From contig CAVQUB010000015.1 of assembly GCA_963716725.1 (NCBI GenBank), forward strand, positions 96,001-160,000: a stretch of DNA of 64,000 nt, read 5' to 3'. The notes beneath the pieces were generated by a model that saw nothing but the letters and a program-made list of their open reading frames with translations, searched no databases and was not told the DNA's origin. Below are positions 44,764 through 54,611 of this stretch, one piece after another (positions within the stretch are counted from its first letter, which is position 1; the number at the start of each line of letters is the position of its first letter). This stretch comes from an uncultured delta proteobacterium (GTDB lineage: Bacteria > Myxococcota_A > Polyangia > Polyangiales > Polyangiaceae). Both the position numbers and the translations under genes were made by a program.

Positions 44764-46277
44764 TCAGGGCTTGCCGGTGCCCGGCGGGTTGTTCTTGCAC
44801 CAATCGATGCCTGCCTGACTCGGCGCAGCGCTCGGCGCGCCCGTCGGCGGAGTCATGAAGGGCGGGTTGTCGAAGTCGAACATGTCCAGGAAGGGCCAGG
44901 CGTTCGCGTCCCGCGCAGTCATGGCGGGCAGGTCGAAGCGGTTCTGGATGAAGCGGGTGACGCTGGTGATGTCCGTCGTGAAGTGGCTCACGTAGCCCTT
45001 CTTGACCCAGGGCGCGGCGATGACGAAGGGCGTGCGGACGCCCAGGCGATCGAATTTGTAGGTCGGCGGGAGGATGCCGTCCGGTTCGCAGGCCTCGGGC
45101 GGAGGCACGTGGTCGTAGAAACCCCCGTGCTCGTCGTAGAGCAAGATGAACACGGTCTTCTGCCAGACCTTCGGCTTGCTCATCAGCTTGTTCAACACGC
45201 GGGCCGCGAACTGCTGTCCCTTCTGGATGTTGGCCGGGGGGTGCTCGTCGTTCTGGCTCGCGCCACTGAAGCTCGGGTCGATGATGGAAAGCGCCGGCAG
45301 TTTGTCGGCATCGACGTCATTGTCGAACTGAGCGATGTTCACACCGAGGTACTTGACCCCGAAGATCACCGCGAACGACGTGATGCCGTCCCGGTAGATC
45401 TTCCAGCTTCGTCCGGCCTTATCCATCGTGTCGAGGAGCTTGTCCGAGCTCTGATAGACGTTGTTGGTGAGGAAGCCGACGTCGGAGGTCTTGATGTTTC
45501 CCCACGACGTTCCGCCGTAAAAGTAGAGCCGGTTTGGCCAGGTCGGACCGAGCAATGAGCAGAAATGGCGGTCGCTCATCGAGAACGTCTTCGCTAGCCA
45601 GTAGTAGTAGGGCAAATCCGTCTGGTCGTAGTAACCCATGGCGCGGGCGCCGCCAGGGTTGTTGGTCGCGACGAAGCCGTCCATCTTGCCTTCGTCGTAC
45701 TGCCAGTGGACTTGGTCCCAGTCATGGGCGACGTCTTCTACGCAGTATCTAGACTCGTGGAAGCGTTGTACCTGCTTGGGGGGATTGGCGTCTGGGTCGA
45801 TGTTCGAAGCGTTGGCCGCGGGCACGTCCACGTCCTTCACGCCGTAGTTGGCGAGCTCCGAAAATAGTGGTCGAAGCTGCGGTTCTCTTGCATCAAGACC
45901 ACGACGTGCTCGAAGGGCATCGCGTCGCCGTGGGGCACCTTGGCGCCGATGGTCTCGGTGGTCTTGGAGCCCGACGTGAACTTGCAGGACTTGCGATTCG
46001 ATTCTTGGGTGTCGTAGCTGGGCGCTGCGCCCGACCCGCCGCTGCCGGCCGCGCCGCCGCTGCCCGAGCTGCCTCCGGCGGCGCCGCTGCCCGAGCCGCC
46101 GCCCGTGCTGCCTCCGGTGCCGCCGCCGCTCGGCGCTCCGCTGCTGCCCGCGGCTCCGCCGCTGCTCGCACCGCCGCCGCCCGGACTCTCGCCGTCGCCG
46201 TCGTCCCCACACGCAAAGGCGCCGAGCGACGCGAGCATCGCCAGCGAAACCCCGAGAACGATCGATCGGCTCACCAC
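44764..46277 (-). CDS. phospholipase C/phosphoesterase-family lipoprotein (frameshift in A run 45861-45864)
   Basis: EHVVVLMQENRSFDHYF, GPTWPNR, YDEHGGFYDHVPPP, LGVRTP; one extra T joins the frames. Confidence 0.88.
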
Positions 46278-46291
46278 TCGCCGAGCATAGC

Positions 46292-47320
46292 TCAGGTCCC
46301 CCCAGGGGTCGTCAGATACACCAGGAAGGTCCCGAGCCAGTGGGTTGTCGCGTAGTCATTGCTGCCGAGCCCGTCCAGGGCCGCGGCCCGGTGCGTGCTG
46401 GCGGCGCCCAGCAGCGCGGGGCGCCGAGCGTCGCCGGGCGCCAGCGCGTCGGCGATGCCCGCGAGCATCCAGGCGCGGCTCGCGTTCAACCCGTCCAGGT
46501 GGACGAGCTTGCCGTCGCTGCGATCCGGGCACGTCACCGGGCGGAGCCACGACGGGTCGCCGCCCTCTGGGATGTTCGGCAGGAACTGCTGGAGCCAGCT
46601 CGAGAACTGCGGCGGGGTCAGCACGCGTCGCATCACGTCGGCTTCGGCGAGGCAGGGGGACAAGAAGTCGTAGCCGGAGGGCTCGAGGTGCAAGGCTCCC
46701 CGGAGATCTGCGGCGTAGAGTTCTCGAACCCGCGCGGCCGCGGATGCGCGCACTTTGCCTTGGGCCCAGTCGAGGAAGAGCGACGCCCCGAACGCGGTCT
46801 GGGAGTGCTCGCCCGTGCGCACGGGATGGGGCAAACCTTCGAGGTAGCGCAGCATGCGTGCCGCGCCGAGCTCGACGATGGGGTCCAGCAGAGAGCACCA
46901 GCGCTCAGCGTCGGCTTCATCCCACTCGCTGAGTTCGCGGTGCAGCGTGAGCAGCCAGCCGATGCCGTAAGGGATCTCGAAGCCAACGCGGTCCGGGTGA
47001 TTTAGGTAGCGGAGCTCCCCGTCCAGCTTCTCCGGGCTGAGGCTGGAGCTCAGCGCTAAACGGGCGGGCCCGACGAAGGGTGCGTCGGGAAACCGGCGGC
47101 ACAGGCGCGCGAGCGTCCAATGGCCGTGCACGGCCGAGTGCCAGTCGTAGCAGCCGAAGAAGGCGGGAGTCAGCGCTCGTGGAGGAGCGACGTCGTCGTC
47201 GCCGGCGAGGGCGTGCGCGATCTTGTTCGGGTACTCTTGTTTCACCGCCGACAGGACGCGACCGGCGATGGCTGCGGCGGTGGTGGGAGCGAGGCGGTCC
47301 ACGGCGGGGTTTGATACCAC
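46292..47320 (-). CDS. DUF2891 family protein
   Basis: EYPNK, PAFFGCYDWHSAVHGHW, HLDGLNASRAW, HWLGTF. Confidence 0.88.
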   Translation of the reverse strand: MVSNPAVDRLAPTTAAAIAGRVLSAVKQEYPNKIAHALAGDDDVAPPRALTPAFFGCYDWHSAVHGHWTLARLCRRFPDAPFVGPARLALSSSLSPEKLDGELRYLNHPDRVGFEIPYGIGWLLTLHRELSEWDEADAERWCSLLDPIVELGAARMLRYLEGLPHPVRTGEHSQTAFGASLFLDWAQGKVRASAAARVRELYAADLRGALHLEPSGYDFLSPCLAEADVMRRVLTPPQFSSWLQQFLPNIPEGGDPSWLRPVTCPDRSDGKLVHLDGLNASRAWMLAGIADALAPGDARRPALLGAASTHRAAALDGLGSNDYATTHWLGTFLVYLTTPGGT

Positions 47321-48562: not shown

Positions 48563-49720
48563 GTGCACGCCGATTACCCCATCGACATCCCGCGGCTCGA
48601 TCCCGAGATCGGCGCGGAGTTGCAGCGCGTGCGGCGAGCGTTTCGGGAGGGGCGCGGCCCAGGGGAGTCGGCGCTCTTCGCCCTCGAGCGACTGCTGGCG
48701 CGGAAGCTGGCGGTCATGGCCGCGCAGGCGAGCGCCGTGGCCGACGCCAACGTCCGGGCGGTGGAGCTGGTCGAGAAGCAGGAAGAGATCAGCACGCGGC
48801 TCGACACCCAGAACCGGGAGTTGGCCGAGCAGACCCAGCGCATCGAGCAGGCGCGCGCGGAGCTCGAGTCGCAGCTCGAAGCCATGGTCGCGGCGAACGT
48901 CGATGCGGTCCTGATGCTGGACGACAGCGAGCAGCGCATGCAGGAGATTGCCGGGGCACGAGATCGTCTTTCGGACGTGTCGCGCCTGCTGTTGGACCGC
49001 GCCCGCACCCTCGAGCAGGAAGCGATGGCCCTCGCGGAGTCCAACGCGAGCGCGGTGTTGATGCTCGACGAGCGCGAACACCAGATTGCGACTGCCCAAT
49101 CCGCGGTCAAGAAGCTCGCAGGTGAGCGGGCCGAGTTCGAGCAAAAAGCCTTCGTCGACGCCATGACCGGGCTGTTCAACCACCGCTACTTCAAGGAGCA
49201 GACCATCCTGGAGCTGGCGCGAGCCAAGCGCTACCAGCGGGCGCTGAGCCTCGTGTTCATCGACGTGGATCACTTCAAGAAGCTGAACGACACTCACGGC
49301 CACCAGGTCGGCGACGAGGTCCTGACCGCGGTGGGCCGGATCCTGTCGAGCGAGGTGCGCGGCGCGGACATCACGGTGCGAATGGACGGTGTGCCGTATG
49401 CCGTGCGCTACGGGGGCGAAGAGTTCGTGATCATCCTTCCCGAGACGGACGTCGCGGGAGCGCTGTGCGTGGCAGAGCGATTGCGGGAATGCATTGCGGT
49501 CGCGGATTTGCCGGGAGGGACCACCCAGCCCTCGGGGCGCGTCACGATCAGCGCGGGCGTGGCGGCCTTCGCGCCGGGTGACAGCAACGTCGAGGCGCTG
49601 GTCCAGCGCGCAGACGCCGCGCTCTACGCCGCGAAACGCGGTGGTCGAAATCGGGTCGTCGTCGCGGAGTCGAGCACCGAGTCGAGCGCGCACCCGAGCG
49701 TCGAGCTATCAGGCGTCTGA
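48563..49720 (+). CDS. diguanylate cyclase with repetitive coiled-coil N-terminus
   Basis: DAMTGLFNHRY, DVDHFKKLNDTHGHQVGD, RYGGEEF, ADAALYAAK. Confidence 0.92.
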   Translation: MHADYPIDIPRLDPEIGAELQRVRRAFREGRGPGESALFALERLLARKLAVMAAQASAVADANVRAVELVEKQEEISTRLDTQNRELAEQTQRIEQARAELESQLEAMVAANVDAVLMLDDSEQRMQEIAGARDRLSDVSRLLLDRARTLEQEAMALAESNASAVLMLDEREHQIATAQSAVKKLAGERAEFEQKAFVDAMTGLFNHRYFKEQTILELARAKRYQRALSLVFIDVDHFKKLNDTHGHQVGDEVLTAVGRILSSEVRGADITVRMDGVPYAVRYGGEEFVIILPETDVAGALCVAERLRECIAVADLPGGTTQPSGRVTISAGVAAFAPGDSNVEALVQRADAALYAAKRGGRNRVVVAESSTESSAHPSVELSGV

Positions 49721-50524
49721 AGCCTCGGTCGCGCGGGCGCGACAGACCAGGACCGCGTCGTCCAAGACGTAGATCTCGCGACCGGGATCGCCGCCCGAGA
49801 GGTAGGGCGCGCGGGTCAGCGCGACCACCTCGAGCCCCAACGGTTCGATGACGCGAGCGACGAGCTCCGCGACGGCGTGCTCCCAGGACTCTTGCTCGAG
49901 GGGCAGGCGCTCGTCGGGATCGCGCGTCACGCCGCCCGCGTAGACGAAAGGGCGATAGGGTAGGGGCGTGGCGACCACGAGCCGTCCGTCGTTCGTGAGG
50001 GCGCTCGCGAGATTTCGGAGCAAGGATTGCGGTCGATTCGAGCGATCGATGACGTTGAGGCAGGTCACCAGATCGAAGCGGTCATCGAGGTGCGCCTCGG
50101 CCAGATCCACACGCCGACAGTCGTAACCCCGGCGCTCCAAGCGTCGCGCCATCATGCGCGAGGTCTCGCTCGTCACGACCTGCTCCGCGCGGGTCGCCAG
50201 TCGCGCCGTGACGTCTCCGCAGCCGGCACCCACATCGAGGAGGCGAGGCTGCCGCTGGGGGCCGAGCAAGCGCGTCCACTGTTCGGCGCTCAGCAAGAAC
50301 AACGGATAGGTGCCGAGCAGGGCGTTCACGTCGAAGTCCGAGAGGAAGGTGCCCAGCGCACCGTGCAAGAACGCCATGGATCGACCGTGCCGACGGCGAC
50401 CCGCGGCGTCGGCAAAGGCGCGGGTTTCGTCGTCGACCTCGAGCTGAAGGAAGCGCTCAGCGAGCCTTGGCGGCAGCTGCGTGACGTCGCAGTCGTACGC
50501 AAATTCGGCGTCTGCGGGGCGCAT
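49709..50524 (-). CDS. METTL9/DREV-like class I SAM methyltransferase
   Basis: VNALLG..LFLLS.EQW..LL, LLDVGAGCGDVT, CLNVIDR, LPYRPFV, RAPYL..GD..YVLDDAVLV. Confidence 0.85.
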   Translation of the reverse strand: MRPADAEFAYDCDVTQLPPRLAERFLQLEVDDETRAFADAAGRRRHGRSMAFLHGALGTFLSDFDVNALLGTYPLFLLSAEQWTRLLGPQRQPRLLDVGAGCGDVTARLATRAEQVVTSETSRMMARRLERRGYDCRRVDLAEAHLDDRFDLVTCLNVIDRSNRPQSLLRNLASALTNDGRLVVATPLPYRPFVYAGGVTRDPDERLPLEQESWEHAVAELVARVIEPLGLEVVALTRAPYLSGGDPGREIYVLDDAVLVCRARATEASDA

Positions 50525-50544
50525 GCGTGATCGTAACCCCGCTC

Positions 50545-51810
50545 TCAGGCCGGGCGCCCCAGGGACGAGAACGGACCCTGGATGGCGACGGTCTTGCCCT
50601 CGAGGAACAGGTTCAAGAACAGCGCGCTGCCGTCGGGTGAGAAACATGGGCCGGCGAGCTCGCCGGGCCCACCGGCGTTGAACGCGATGTCGTAGACGTA
50701 GCCCTCCGGGGTGAGGCCGCGCAGGAAATTGCCGTCGGCGCCGTCCTCCGCCATCAACACATGGCCCCAGGGCGCGACGGTGATGTTGTCGGGGCTGTCG
50801 AGGACGTCGGCGTTGGGTGACTCCGCCAAGAGCTCGAGCTCGTCGGCTTTGCCGTCGTTGCCCAGGTTCAGCTTGAAGATCTGGCCGCGGTCTTTGCGGC
50901 CGCCGAGGGTGGTCGCAAAGTAGAGCGCACCGGCGTGGAAGAACGCGCCCTCGCCGCGACGGAACTTCGCGGCGCCGAGCTCGTGCGCTTGCAGCCTCAC
51001 GGTGTCTTCCTTGGGAGCGGGCTCCTTGACCTCGACCCACTCCACGGTGACCCGCGTTCCGGGGGACATGTCGAGCGCCGTTTCGAGGCGCGGGCGGCCG
51101 GTGACGGCGAGGGCCCAGAGCTTGCCGACGAAGGGCTGGTCTTGGTTTGCGGGCACGAAGCGATAGAGGCAGCCGTCCGCGCGGTCTTCGGTCATGTAGG
51201 CGTTGAACGTGGCGGGGTCGAAGCCCACCGCTTCGTGGGTGAAGCGCCCGTATCCGTCGAGTCGATCTGGCTTTGCGACGCGTTCGGCGTCGGGGCTGCA
51301 GAGAAAAGCGTAGCCGTGTCCCGCTTCGTTGATCTCCTCGCAGGCGATCCAGCCCCAAGGGCAGGAACCCCCACCGCAGGTCTTGAGGGTGCCGGTGAGG
51401 ACCAGGTTGTTCGACACCTTCGCCAGCGTCTTGCCGTCGAGCACCACCCGCGTCACTCCGCCGAAGCAGGTCTTGTCGTAGGCCTCCGGCGGCGGGTCGT
51501 TCGAAGCGTACGCGCCATGCCCGAAGTGGCGGGTGATCTCGTGGTTTCTGAGCAAGACCAGCTGGCCGCGCCCGGTGGCGAAGCAGCCCATGCCGTCAGG
51601 CAAGTTGGGGACGCGATAGCCGTCGCTCATGGGCTCTCCGGCGCCGTCGATCACGCGGTAGGTGAAGCCCGGCGGTAGGTCGAGCACCTTGGCGGGGTCG
51701 CGAACCAAGCCCCGCGCTTGGGGCCGTCGCGAACGAAAGATCAGGGGCAGGGCGGCCACCGACGCGGCGACGCCTCCGAGCACGAGCAGCTTCCGACGCG
51801 TGAGCTGCAT
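50545..51810 (-). CDS. Tat-exported PhoX-family (DUF839) phosphatase
   Basis: TRRKLL Tat signal; PDGM, LRNHE, CEE, GRFTHEA, TED, RGEG, PDNI, EDG, GELAGP. Confidence 0.85.
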   Translation of the reverse strand: MQLTRRKLLVLGGVAASVAALPLIFRSRRPQARGLVRDPAKVLDLPPGFTYRVIDGAGEPMSDGYRVPNLPDGMGCFATGRGQLVLLRNHEITRHFGHGAYASNDPPPEAYDKTCFGGVTRVVLDGKTLAKVSNNLVLTGTLKTCGGGSCPWGWIACEEINEAGHGYAFLCSPDAERVAKPDRLDGYGRFTHEAVGFDPATFNAYMTEDRADGCLYRFVPANQDQPFVGKLWALAVTGRPRLETALDMSPGTRVTVEWVEVKEPAPKEDTVRLQAHELGAAKFRRGEGAFFHAGALYFATTLGGRKDRGQIFKLNLGNDGKADELELLAESPNADVLDSPDNITVAPWGHVLMAEDGADGNFLRGLTPEGYVYDIAFNAGGPGELAGPCFSPDGSALFLNLFLEGKTVAIQGPFSSLGRPA

Positions 51811-51816
51811 GGACCT

Positions 51817-53343
51817 TCAGGACGGCGGGAGCCGCTTCTCTCGCAGATGCCAGGCGATCCGGAGAGCCATGCTCATGATGCTGAGCTGCGGATTCACGCC
51901 CAAGCTCGAGGGCAAGATGCTGCCGTCGGCCACGAAGAGCTCGGGCAAATCCCACGCTTGCCCGAAAGGATCCACCACCGAGGCTTGGGCAGAAACGCCC
52001 ATGCGGCAGGTCCCGAGGGGGTGCTGAGAGCTGCTCTCGAGGGCGGTCGCCGGGACGTGATCGAGATCGACGCTCGCGAGTCCATCGCGATCGATGCCGC
52101 CTAGCCCCAAGATCGGCAGGTACACCTCCTCGGCACCGCCCGCGAAGAAGGCCTCGGCCATGCGACGCATGAGCACCGGGATCGCGGCGCGATCTTTGGG
52201 CGCCATGCGGTAGGTCATGAATGATCGATCGAAGAGCGTCTGGACGCGGCCGCCGCCTTCGTCGTGGATCATGCCGCCGAAGATCGCCATGTTCGGAATG
52301 GAAGCGGCGACGCGTTGGTGCGCGAGCCCGATGCCGGGGAGCGTGCCCGCCAGGGCGCCCGGCGGGATGAAGAGGCTCGTCATGGTGATGCGGTCGCGTT
52401 CGAGCGCGTCGGAGTAAGCGCTCTGCAGCGCGCCCTTCCAGCCCTCGACCGGGTCTTTGAAGCGCGCCATGACGCGGAAGCCGGGATGCAGCGTCATGTT
52501 GCGCCCGACTTGCCCGGAGCGCCGGCCGATGCCGCTGCGCTCGAGCAAGAGCGGGGAGGCGTAGGCCCCCGCGGCGACGACGACGCGTCGTGCGCGCACC
52601 CGGAGATGGCCCCGAGCTTTCTTGTGCGGGCCCGAGAGCAAGCGCCCGACGACGCCGCTCGCACGGCCCCGCGTGGCGAGCACCCGGTCGACGCGACAGT
52701 CGGAGTAGAGCCGGGCGCCTGCCGCCAGCGCTCGGGGCAAATAGGTGAGGTCGACGCTGAGCTTTGCGCCGTGCGGACAGCCGAAGTTGCAGCGCCCGCA
52801 GCCGTTGCAGCCCTTGGTATTGCGCCGCATGGGCTCCCAGCCGAGGCCGATGGCGTCCAGGCCTTTCAGGAAGTGCTGGGTGGACCGCGAGCGCATCGCC
52901 GCCGGGACTTCTTCGACGTGGATCCGGCGCTCGACCTCCTCGAAGACGGCCTCCATCCGCTTTGGACTGATGTCTTCGAGCCCGTGATGGGCCGCCCACT
53001 CGTGCATCACTCGATCGGGGATCCGAAAGCACACGCCGCCCGTCAGTACCGACGAACCACCGACGCACTGGCCCATCATCACGTTGATGACCGGCGTGTC
53101 GCCCAGGCCGACGGCGAAGGTGAGGCCCGCGTCGCGCCACATATGACGCAGGTTCTCGCTCGGTCGCATGCGCCCGTAGCGCTCCGGCGGAACGAAGGGG
53201 CCTTCTTCGAGGATCAGGACGCTCTGTCCAGCCTCGGCCAATTCCGCTGCGACCACCGCGCCGCCGGCGCCCGAGCCGATCACGACCACGTCGGCGTCGA
53301 GGCTGAGATCGCCCGCCTGCGCTCGTCCCTCGATGATCGTCAT
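51817..53343 (-). CDS. GMC-family oxidoreductase
   Basis: IGSGAGG FAD motif, VGGSS, CNGCGRCNFGC, HPLGTCRMG, GVNPQ. Confidence 0.9.
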   Translation of the reverse strand: MTIIEGRAQAGDLSLDADVVVIGSGAGGAVVAAELAEAGQSVLILEEGPFVPPERYGRMRPSENLRHMWRDAGLTFAVGLGDTPVINVMMGQCVGGSSVLTGGVCFRIPDRVMHEWAAHHGLEDISPKRMEAVFEEVERRIHVEEVPAAMRSRSTQHFLKGLDAIGLGWEPMRRNTKGCNGCGRCNFGCPHGAKLSVDLTYLPRALAAGARLYSDCRVDRVLATRGRASGVVGRLLSGPHKKARGHLRVRARRVVVAAGAYASPLLLERSGIGRRSGQVGRNMTLHPGFRVMARFKDPVEGWKGALQSAYSDALERDRITMTSLFIPPGALAGTLPGIGLAHQRVAASIPNMAIFGGMIHDEGGGRVQTLFDRSFMTYRMAPKDRAAIPVLMRRMAEAFFAGGAEEVYLPILGLGGIDRDGLASVDLDHVPATALESSSQHPLGTCRMGVSAQASVVDPFGQAWDLPELFVADGSILPSSLGVNPQLSIMSMALRIAWHLREKRLPPS

Positions 53344-53900
53344 GACCGCACCGGCAGCTGCAACGGCTCGGCCGACTTCAGGCAGCGGCCGTCGAAGCCG
53401 ACCTCGCGGGCGGCGTCGGGGTGCTCGTAGTACAGGATGCAGAGCATGGCCTTGACGGCCAGGACTGGAGCCCCGAAGCGATCTTCCAGCCGCGCGAGTG
53501 CCCGCGCGCGATCGCGCACCGACAGCCGAGCCAGGGGAACGAAGCGTCGGATCATCAGCGGGGCCAGGACCCCGACGACGAAGAGCGCCAGCCCGATCAC
53601 CCAGCGGGAGCGGGCGCCTGCGCGCGCCAGCATGTCCTCGACCTCGAGCCCCAGCCACTCGATGCGCTCGCGCGCCGGGGGACCGGCGTCCGTCAGGAAT
53701 ACGGCCTCGGCCACCGTGCACGCCCGGGCGACCAGCCGCGGCGAGACGATCGGGCTGCCGTCTGCCTCCCGGAGCGGGCTCAGCGGGGCGGGCTCGAAGG
53801 CGTCCCCACCCAGGGATTGCCAAGGGTCGTCGGAATCGCGGTCTCGGGAACTCACGGCAGCCGGAGATTGCCCGCGAAAACCCGACGAGACAAGCGCCAC
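53340..53900 (-). CDS. small partner of the GMC oxidoreductase (gluconate dehydrogenase subunit 3-like)
   Basis: ATGA overlap with GMC gene; KAMLCILYYEHP..VGFDG; start uncertain. Confidence 0.55.
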   Translation of the reverse strand: MALVSSGFRGQSPAAVSSRDRDSDDPWQSLGGDAFEPAPLSPLREADGSPIVSPRLVARACTVAEAVFLTDAGPPARERIEWLGLEVEDMLARAGARSRWVIGLALFVVGVLAPLMIRRFVPLARLSVRDRARALARLEDRFGAPVLAVKAMLCILYYEHPDAAREVGFDGRCLKSAEPLQLPVRS

Positions 53901-54023
53901 GATCCGCCTGCCGGCTTGTCCTATACTCCGCGATCGCTACGCCGTCGAAGCCTCCACCCCTTGCGTGTGGTGGCCCTCGGCCCAACGAACTCGGTCACCG
54001 CCGAATAAAGAGGAGAGAACGAA

Positions 54024-54611
54024 ATGGACTTCGAGGTTGCCCCGCTGCCGTACTCAAAAGACGCACTCGAGCCCGTGATGAAGGTGGAGACCTTCGAGTT
54101 CCACTACGAGAAGCACCACAAGGGCTACATGACGAACCTCAAGGGCCTGCTCGAGGGCAAACCCGAGGCGAACAAATCCCTGATCGAGGTGATCAAATCG
54201 AGCTCCGGTGGCGTGTTCAACAACGCCGCTCAGGTCTACAACCACAGCTTTTTCTGGGACGGCATGAAGCCCGGCGGGGGCGGCGCTCCGAGCGGAGAGG
54301 TGCTCGACTTGCTGAACCGCGACTTCGGTGGCGTCGACAAGTTCCGCGAGGCCTTCGTCAAGGGTGGCCTCGGACGCTTCGGCTCCGGCTACGTTTGGCT
54401 CGTGCTCGATGAGGGCAAGGCGAAGGTCATCGACACGCCGAACGCGGAGACGCCGCTCACCACCGCGCAGACCCCGCTCTTGACCGCTGACGTGTGGGAG
54501 CACGCCTACTACTTGGATCACCGAAACAACCGCAAGGGGTTCCTCGAGGCCTTCTGCGACAAGCTCGTCAACTGGGAGTTCGTCGCCAAGAACCTGAAGG
54601 CGGGCAAGTAG
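54024..54611 (+). CDS. sodB: superoxide dismutase (Fe type)
   Basis: HYEKHH, NNAAQVYNH, FGSG, DVWEHAYY. Confidence 0.93.
   Translation: MDFEVAPLPYSKDALEPVMKVETFEFHYEKHHKGYMTNLKGLLEGKPEANKSLIEVIKSSSGGVFNNAAQVYNHSFFWDGMKPGGGGAPSGEVLDLLNRDFGGVDKFREAFVKGGLGRFGSGYVWLVLDEGKAKVIDTPNAETPLTTAQTPLLTADVWEHAYYLDHRNNRKGFLEAFCDKLVNWEFVAKNLKAGK

Follow-up and report, generated by a model that had tools for sequence, protein, structure and literature searches.

An intact METTL9/DREV-family methyltransferase of the Polyangiales as a candidate bacterial protein-histidine methyltransferase

The present analysis concerns one gene in a stretch of 64,000 nucleotides (nt) from an uncultured delta proteobacterium of the Polyangiaceae (contig CAVQUB010000015.1, positions 96,001 to 160,000; hereafter the window), which lies on contig 15 of 35 in an assembly of 7.9 Mb that is 84% complete. 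A simple gene caller, written for this analysis and based on position-specific G+C, picks four consecutive minus-strand genes (49709-50524, 50545-51810, 51817-53343 and 53340-53855), and the gene in question, which encodes a methyltransferase of the DREV/METTL9 family, is the last of them in the direction of reading. It starts with ATG and its translation of 271 amino acids (aa) has zero internal stops, with neither a signal peptide nor a membrane segment evident at the N terminus. In the list of open reading frames (ORFs), the gene appears solely as the tail of a 549-aa ORF (49709-51358) with a TTG start, which the first-pass annotation had called spurious. We agree and reject this ORF as a real gene: its G+C by codon position is 0.87/0.68/0.47 in the extension versus 0.74/0.49/0.83 in the last 271 codons, the extension clashes out of frame with the PhoX-like gene upstream and the gene caller does not choose it. 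The features of the locus are the following.

49709..50524, minus strand: S-adenosylmethionine (SAM)-dependent methyltransferase of the DREV/METTL9 family (P0003), assigned by Pfam PF05219, matches in the PDB and key residues
50525..51358, minus strand: spurious 5' extension of the 549-aa ORF, set aside on codon-position GC, its out-of-frame overlap with the PhoX-like gene and the gene caller
50545..51810, minus strand: PhoX-family (DUF839-like) protein, 421 aa (Pfam PF05787, E 4.2e-50)
51817..53343, minus strand: GMC-family FAD oxidoreductase, 508 aa (Pfam GMC_oxred_N 8.9e-48, GMC_oxred_C 3.8e-20)
53340..53855, minus strand: small "partner" protein, 171 aa (gene call; overlaps the GMC start by 4 nt)
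54024..54611, plus strand: Fe/Mn superoxide dismutase (SOD), 195 aa (Pfam Sod_Fe_C 9.9e-33, Sod_Fe_N 9.1e-25), divergent from the operon
48563..49720, plus strand: GGDEF diguanylate cyclase (Pfam GGDEF 4.3e-45), convergent with the methyltransferase gene, the 3' ends overlapping by 12 nt
46292..47302, minus strand: DUF2891 protein, 336 aa, with the motif DWHSAVHGHW (Pfam PF11199, 1.3e-109), 2.4 kb downstream of the methyltransferase on the same strand
44764-45840, minus strand: Phosphoesterase-family (PF04185) gene, within 7 kb of the PhoX-like gene (50545-51810)

The methyltransferase had been read in the first-pass annotation as a homolog of METTL9 (DREV) along its whole 271 aa, with best profile hits to generic methyltransferases named as the outcome that would speak against this. 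The outcome was the opposite. Pfam DREV (PF05219) matches at E 1.2e-45 with 156.1 bits (cut-off 26). The match is end to end, spanning residues 12-261 of the protein and positions 4-263 of the 265 in the profile. The runner-up family is Methyltransf_12 with 47.8 bits, and the objection from generic hits fails because all of the generic methyltransferase domains score at most 48 bits, more than 100 bits below DREV. Solved METTL9 structures are likewise retrieved by phmmer over 250 or more alignable residues (8bvi at E 4.3e-35; 8gze, 9vpq and 7y9c at 2e-34 to 3.4e-34), and the alignment to METTL9 chain 8gze recovers all of the motif pairs on which the homology had been proposed: NGLLGRGSMFVFS/NALLGTYPLFLLS, LLDLGAGDGEVT/LLDVGAGCGDVT, CLNLLDRC/CLNVIDRS, LPFHPYV/LPYRPFV and LPYLCEGD..YVLDDAVFV/APYLSGGD..YVLDDAVLV (window protein first). 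The human and mouse enzyme (7Y9C, 7YF2-4, 8GZE/F, 9VPQ) is a protein-L-histidine N-pros-methyltransferase that belongs, over its full length, to the same Pfam family as the window protein. As in METTL9, the alignable part appears to take in the N-terminal helices that wrap the Rossmann core; unlike human METTL9, the window protein is without an N-terminal extension and sits in a bacterial operon. A second assembly on record encodes a 271-aa protein that is 98% identical (P0004). Judged from its sequence, the window gene is certainly a genuine, intact DREV/METTL9-family methyltransferase of the bacterium.

To compare the two groups residue by residue, we relied upon the list of human METTL9 residues found in the accessible part of PMC10308197. 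According to that part of the paper, SAM is bound by D151, G153, E174, N210 and Y295, with N118 and D156 contributing through water; D213 and R214 of the NxxDR motif form the catalytic pair, the Asp orienting the target imidazole; and R114, T115, R123, M126, V241, H245, Y247, E249, W255, C297, D300, Y306 and L308 line the peptide site and pocket, Y295, M126, C297 and L308 among these residues accommodating the first histidine of the His-x-His (HxH) motif. It also reports that R123A and E249A abolish peptide binding, which T115A and V241G weaken. This numbering was carried over via a vertebrate-type representative (P0254), whose landmark motifs equal those of the solved chain and whose letters fit the numbering of the paper. 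Of the 150 best cluster representatives at 50% identity, 13 were under 235 aa and were dropped; the other 137 and the window protein make up the alignment of 138 sequences. Its bacterial (73 rows) and eukaryote-like (51 rows) groups were read off a FastTree tree and are thus defined after the fact, with organism names available for some members of the eukaryote-like group only.

In the window protein, D97, G99, E120, N157, D160, R161, Y241, D246, Y252, L254 and N67 match human METTL9 and L75 stands at the position of M126. The aligned SAM-binding set is present (D97, G99, E120, N157, Y241 and N67), as is the catalytic Asp and Arg pair (D160 and R161), while the position of the water-mediated D156 is taken by C102 and varies across the bacterial group (S 21, D 19, N 14 and A 5 among the commonest of 73). 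These matches are features of the bacterial group as a whole: D151, G153, D213 and R214 are kept in 73/73 rows, Y295 in 71/73, N210 in 70/73, M126 (as M or L) in 69/73, E174 in 67/73, L308 in 64/73, D300 in 63/73 and Y306 in 48/73. For comparison, D213 is found in 50/51 and R214 in 51/51 of the eukaryote-like representatives. The first-His pocket is also retained in the window protein as Y241, L75, S243 and L254, and the Ser at the position of C297 is the commonest residue there in the eukaryote-like set too (25/51).

The peptide-contact set is a different matter. D300 alone is retained (D246), with F64 at the position of T115, T72 at R123, P187 at V241, F193 at Y247 and Y195 at E249; the window protein further differs from human METTL9 in having R at H245 and D at R114. 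Most of these replacements extend to the entire bacterial group, as the following positions illustrate.

T115: F or Y in 73/73 bacterial rows; T in 45/51 eukaryote-like rows
R123: M 32, T 18, A 8 and I 8 of 73 bacterial rows; R in 30/51 eukaryote-like rows
V241: P in 67/73 bacterial rows; V in 46/51 eukaryote-like rows
E249: Y 39, H 11, F 8 and D 8 of 73 bacterial rows; E in 43/51 eukaryote-like rows
R114: D in 54/73 bacterial rows; variable in the eukaryote-like group (R 14 and V 8 of 51)

The bacterial clade therefore looks as if METTL9 chemistry and the first-His pocket were left intact and the groove that reads the flanks of the motif was remodelled. Such changes would lower the expectation of the same specificity as METTL9, but not that of the same chemistry. 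Because the bacterial clade has a peptide groove of its own (F/Y, M/T, P and Y/H), its preference for flanking sequence should differ from that of the animal enzyme. A useful comparison is METTL9 of Ostreococcus tauri (8BVI; PMC12269839), the best solved match of the window protein (E 4.3e-35, residues 8-263), which shares with it a Phe at the position of Y247. In the part of PMC12269839 available, this enzyme is reported to methylate HxH substrates, with a specificity that is narrower and a groove of different shape. Its reported activity despite the altered groove shows that changes of this kind alter preference rather than abolish activity and that the family tolerates them. Ostreococcus METTL9, unlike the bacterial clade, retains T115, R123 and E249.

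By analogy with the solved human enzyme, a mechanism can be outlined. The enzyme would be a cytoplasmic, vertically maintained seven-beta-strand SAM-dependent methyltransferase, in which SAM is predicted to be held by motif I (D97-V-G99-A-G), E120 and N157, and Y241 would touch SAM as well as the recognition histidine. D160, the counterpart of human D213, would hydrogen-bond one ring nitrogen of the substrate histidine, such that the other, N-pi (N1), attacks the SAM methyl group, and the pocket of L75, S243, Y241 and L254 would correspond to the reader of the first His of His-x-His in METTL9. The most likely product would be 1-methylhistidine in proteins at HxH-like sites, by which metal binding may be tuned. 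We consider protein-histidine N-pi methylation at HxH-like sites to be the somewhat probable activity of the window methyltransferase.

The distribution of the gene was examined in samples of family, phylum and control genomes. Within the family, by the Pfam model at E<=1e-10, it is present as a single copy in 39/151 genomes, 33/109 high-quality genomes and 20/89 genera, with internal stops in none, a pattern of purifying maintenance. The phylum sample of 401 genomes has 19 positives, all of the same order, titled Polyangiales; by family code these fall into f1 (11/29), f2 (3/23), f7 (2/2), f8 (1/1) and f9 (1/1), with 0 in the other sampled families. None of the 14 control genomes, E. coli included, matched DREV at E<=1e-10. 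When 185,579 prokaryote species, each represented by a single genome, were scanned with sequence patterns, 107 relatives came up, and the 80 that were kept, all of them from metagenome-assembled genomes (MAGs), carry the titles Myxococcota (65, including 47 Polyangiales), Proteobacteria/Pseudomonadota (8), unranked (4), Actinomycetes (2) and Schekmanbacteria (1). Because the scan patterns derive from the bacterial alignment, they may have passed over divergent clades in other phyla. Three of these MAGs, labelled Schekmanbacteria or Actinomycetes (L051, L055 and L060; 68-73% G+C) have methyltransferases that fall among the Polyangiales copies in the tree, and they could be mislabelled bins or instances of transfer. 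As for mobile carriers, a tblastn search of 72,556 plasmids and 50,697 phage records found no copy, and the IMG/VR viral contigs gave only 4 weak partial matches to generic methyltransferases (23-39% identity). The segment 49709-51810 is contained wholly or in part in 20 of the 22 listed sequencing runs, from 8 studies of biofilter, wastewater, sediment, groundwater and freshwater metagenomes; none is recorded as RNA, which is not evidence either way.

The closest known relatives of the window protein are Polyangiales proteins named "methyltransferase domain-containing protein" (e.g. P0005, P0006, P0061 and P0079, from Polyangiaceae MAGs), which are 42-70% identical to it over the 80 loci, measure about 260-300 aa, share the signatures SDFDxNGLLGTYP[ML] and CLNV[IL]DR and often have a similar neighbourhood. 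The window gene is a typical representative of this clade, whose generic database name is the only point of difference from the reading given here. To relate the clade to eukaryotes, 19 eukaryote-like representatives were made into a profile, which retrieved named METTL9/DREV proteins of oomycetes, kinetoplastids, Cymbomonas, Durusdinium, a sponge, beetles, a tick, a nemertean and a hagfish as well as EukProt and MMETSP transcripts. The resulting tree has 74 rows: 30 of the Polyangiales group (the window and 29 related loci), 22 named or transcriptome eukaryotes, 14 of two side groups, clades C and D, and 8 unnamed sequences, which form the base of the eukaryote-like group and were placed on the eukaryote side only after the tree had been seen. 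Ostreococcus METTL9, which belongs on the eukaryotic side by its family features, is absent from this tree.

A single branch splits the tree into 44 and 30 rows, with an ultrafast bootstrap (UFBoot) of 100 and an SH-aLRT of 99 in a careful search under LG+C20+F+G4 and an SH-aLRT of 97 in a quick search. The smaller side comprises all 22 eukaryotes and the 8 unnamed rows, two of which sit directly with an MMETSP or EukProt sequence. On the other side, clade D nests among the Polyangiales loci, two members of clade C group with such loci, and the remaining seven of clade C (P0205 and kin) form a long-branched group of their own. Bacterial copies are nested in no eukaryotic lineage and eukaryotes in no bacterial subgroup, a pattern at odds with contamination or a recent transfer and in favour of a single old event. 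The bacterial copies would accordingly rank as the nearest relatives of METTL9 without being nested within its orthologues. We also attempted an outgroup root with three class I methyltransferases of the same genome, after dropping three long-branch rows; the root came out next to clade C, within the bacterial half of the tree, at supports of 4-75, and we rejected it as unreliable because the outgroup branches measure 6-10 changes per site (saturated) and the supports are low. The myxobacteria-eukaryote gene link suggested in the first-pass annotation is therefore upheld as a pattern, one clan drawn mostly from Polyangiales MAGs opposite all of the sampled eukaryotes, and the transfer behind it may have run in either direction.

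The same data bear upon another explanation, in which the gene would have been inserted recently from a eukaryote, or would be a contaminant or a decaying relic that has no function in the bacterium. Such an origin might be suspected from the literature, given that the METTL9 papers, in the parts available, describe the family from eukaryotes only, and from the patchy bacterial distribution of 39/151 family genomes with none outside the order among the 401 phylum genomes. In these parts, the papers describe orthologues that are widespread in eukaryotes except fungi and land plants, with no mention of prokaryotes, and PMC12269839 reports HxH methylation by orthologues from five eukaryotic supergroups. 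No paper on bacterial homologues emerged from our search of the available literature on METTL9/DREV in bacteria or Myxococcota and on protein histidine methyltransferases of bacteria. However, the gene lies inside a 64-kb bacterial window amid SOD, GGDEF and GMC genes, its local G+C of 0.68-0.69 resembles that of the surroundings and its codon-position bias is bacterial. Furthermore, none of the 39 genomes has an internal stop, the bacterial copies are as divergent from one another (down to 42% identity) as the eukaryotic ones, and they form a clan of their own with no plasmid or phage copy found. This explanation is already contradicted by these observations and we regard it as extremely improbable.

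The neighbourhood of the gene was surveyed by calling and clustering genes in 81 loci (80 relatives and the window), the methyltransferase itself being called in 77. In the window, the junctions are tight, with a 4-nt overlap between partner and GMC genes and gaps of 6 nt between GMC and PhoX-like genes and 20 nt between PhoX-like and methyltransferase genes; the first-pass description of a compact minus-strand run ending in the methyltransferase was accurate, even though this companionship is not constant among the relatives. SOD is the commonest neighbour (52/81 loci), lying upstream on the opposite strand in 50. The PhoX-like gene, detected by tblastn in 23/80 related loci, is directly upstream of the methyltransferase in 22/77 (in 16 of these as its immediate neighbour, in 6 separated from it by a single small called ORF), and GMC plus partner occur in 16 loci, in 8 of these immediately upstream of the methyltransferase. 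A 2-hydroxyacid dehydrogenase is directly downstream in 14 loci, sdhCAB lies beyond SOD in roughly 21-24 and an AhpC/TSA-family protein is found in 19/81, the SOD and AhpC genes hinting at an antioxidant theme. The GGDEF gene occurs in 1/80 related loci by tblastn, and is not adjacent there, such that it is not conserved and serves as context only. The phosphoesterase recurs downstream of the methyltransferase in 6/80, and together with the PhoX-family gene it suggests a phosphate-scavenging flavour.

The PhoX-like protein has a twin-arginine-type N terminus (MQLTRRKLLVLGG...) and no PDB relative at E<=0.01. The nearest solved relatives of the GMC protein are the catalytic (large) subunits of bacterial FAD glucose/fructose dehydrogenases (PDB 6a2u/8hdd, about 5e-18), and its Cys-rich motif CNGCGRCNFGC has C179, C182, C185 and C189 invariant in 16/16 relatives. 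The partner protein matched no Pfam family and accompanies GMC in 14 of 15 GMC-holding loci (tblastn); large subunits of FAD glucose/fructose dehydrogenases work with small partner subunits, and the GMC protein here is paired with a small protein as well. A scan of 49400-54200 gave 0 promoter-like sites, including none inside the operon, and 3 terminator-like sites versus 2.4 expected. An element of TTGACAG, about 17-20 nt and GAGATTTCC recurs on the SOD strand upstream of SOD, within 53856-54023 of the window and in the intergenic regions of L008, L014, L017, L021, L022, L056, L059 and other loci. It is probably the SOD promoter; having been considered as a shared regulatory motif for the methyltransferase, it was rejected as such since it reads on the other strand and no feature particular to the methyltransferase emerged.

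Across the 151 family genomes, 18 have both the PhoX-like gene (E<=1e-30) and the methyltransferase, 21 the methyltransferase alone, 17 the PhoX-like gene alone and 95 neither, and the two are adjacent in 11 of the 18. The link between them is real but facultative. An alternative proposal is that the enzyme is a protein methyltransferase with the METTL9 fold, but that its bacterial groove recognises a target different from HxH, for example a single metal-site histidine in the PhoX-like protein (before its Tat export), in SOD or in the DUF2891 protein. Consistent with this would be the clade-wide replacement of R123, E249, T115 and V241, the position of the methyltransferase at the end of PhoX-like or GMC operons in 30/77 loci (22 and 8, respectively), the adjacency in co-occurring genomes and the SOD gene that diverges from the same-strand run of the methyltransferase in 40/81 loci (with no intervening gene in 23). 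The candidate clients also have suitable residues, H165 and H192 being invariant in the PhoX-like protein and SOD keeping its conserved His set. Conversely, the kept pocket for the histidine two residues before the target (Y241, L75, S243 and L254) argues for continued recognition of a second histidine, 21 of the 39 methyltransferase-positive genomes are without a PhoX-like protein at the threshold used and the adjacency of SOD may be gene order inherited within one bacterial order. Shared gene order is in any case weak evidence of shared function here because all loci come from one such order. We consider a non-HxH client fairly unlikely.

Returning to methylation at HxH-like sites, plausible targets can be named. 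By our own gene calls, the genome has 445 H[ANGST]H sites versus about 344 expected, and three proteins hold 6-8 of them each.

G000:C2:196963-198267: LarC nickel-insertion protein (L083) with an N-terminal HEHGHTHE repeat
G000:C13:40462-41511: CDF cation-efflux transporter (L085) with HGHGHGHGHGH ahead of the first membrane segment
G000:C8:239667-240587: protein of 306 aa (L084), of no Pfam family, with about six tandem GHNHDGSYSGL repeats and 8 H[ANGST]H sites

The first two are the genome's densest proteins in His-x-His, and the repeats of the last may resemble the His-x-His metal-binding repeats of some phage tail fibres. The CDF tract, the LarC repeats and the H-G-H of the nearby DUF2891 protein would be plausible targets. 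In the accessible part of PMC12269839, the mammalian METTL9 substrates are reported to include CDF (ZnT) and ZIP transporters. The nearest solved relative of the DUF2891 protein is PDB 8ieu/8iev (E 1.3e-56), apparently uncharacterised, and the motif DWHSxVH[GS]HW is family-wide and seen in 8ieu, with H[GS]H in 7/7 locus copies. DUF2891 is encoded in 21/151 family genomes, 10 of them methyltransferase-positive and 11 not; where both genes occur, no more than about 3.3 kb separates DUF2891 from the methyltransferase upstream of it in 9 of the 10 genomes, six of which have the two side by side, as do the closest relatives.

Several observations weigh against methylation at HxH-like sites. First among these are the swaps of R123, E249, T115 and V241 across the whole bacterial clade, at positions where mutation hurts peptide binding by the human enzyme. 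Secondly, H[ANGST]H is absent in the conserved neighbours (SOD 0/53, PhoX-like 0/22, GMC 0/16 and partner 0/15), and the PhoX-like and DUF2891 proteins are each found without the methyltransferase and vice versa. Lastly, a DNA pattern for HxHxHxHxH was matched in all 151 family genomes with control counts of similar size, and its excess over control has a median of 5 in the 39 positive genomes versus 11 in the 112 negative ones, a difference in the opposite direction to enrichment (Mann-Whitney p 0.005) in a crude measure on genomes that are not independent. A complex prediction of the methyltransferase with S-adenosylhomocysteine (SAH) and CDF residues 22-60 scored 0.01 against a mark of 0.32; it was run without controls and is not evidence either way.

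It is also conceivable that the substrate is not a protein, but a small imidazole such as free histidine, a thiohistidine (for instance an ovothiol precursor) or a His-dipeptide. In favour of this, two charged contacts to the peptide backbone are missing from the groove, which has gained aromatics, and antioxidant genes are frequent around the methyltransferase, as the 52/81 loci with SOD and the 19/81 with AhpC/TSA-family proteins attest. In addition, the top NCBIfam match is the C-terminal domain of OvoA (TIGR04345, 4-mercaptohistidine N1-methyltransferase), which by the NCBIfam description is another class I SAM enzyme acting on the N-pi of an imidazole. The genome likewise has a homologue of EgtB of ergothioneine biosynthesis (L087, G000:C5:222781-223839; 359 bits on the matched part versus a whole-protein cut-off of 360), and the organism probably makes ergothioneine. 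The OvoA match, however, is far under the cut-off (38.3 bits versus 170), unlike that of a member of the family, and comes from residues 149-188 only, i.e. 40 residues of common Rossmann core, where the same model matches weakly in all 14 control genomes. The best match to the N-terminal sulfoxide synthase of OvoA has 47 bits versus 400, in a genome that is 84% complete, and the ovothiol version is weakened because no OvoA was found over the cut-off; we rejected it on these grounds. Moreover, no biosynthetic genes are conserved beside the methyltransferase, and the characterised family members act on proteins, as far as the accessible parts of the METTL9 literature describe them (PMC12269839, PMC10308197). 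A small-molecule substrate in general appears unlikely to us.

The data show an intact gene, its place in the family, its conserved residues and its distribution, synteny and tree, whereas the activity, the regiochemistry, the substrates and the physiological role are inferred. With its catalytic core kept and its substrate groove altered, the window protein is a good candidate for a bacterial protein-histidine methyltransferase. A bolder combination is possible but doubtful: that the Polyangiales clade represents the first bacterial protein-histidine N-pi methyltransferase, tuning HxH metal sites such as the CDF and LarC tracts and the HGH of DUF2891, and that it traces to a single ancient transfer between a Polyangiales-like myxobacterium and stem eukaryotes, in either direction.

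Protein histidine methylation is catalyzed in eukaryotes by METTL9, SETD3, METTL18 and CARNMT1, and as a modification it also occurs in archaeal methyl-coenzyme M reductase; we know of no bacterial protein-histidine methyltransferase. That the proteins described here belong to DREV is already recorded, as databases file them under this family. A small, soluble and intron-free bacterial enzyme that joins the METTL9 core to a different groove would offer an easy system for deriving the rules of groove specificity. If the proposed activity is true, it would provide both a tool for the site-specific installation of 1-methylhistidine and a way to ask whether bacteria tune their metal sites via histidine methylation. 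Likewise, the two-clan tree and the restriction to one myxobacterial order make this family a neat example on which to test whether myxobacteria and eukaryotes exchanged genes long ago, and a protein-modification enzyme would, if this is true, join the list of genes that the two groups share.

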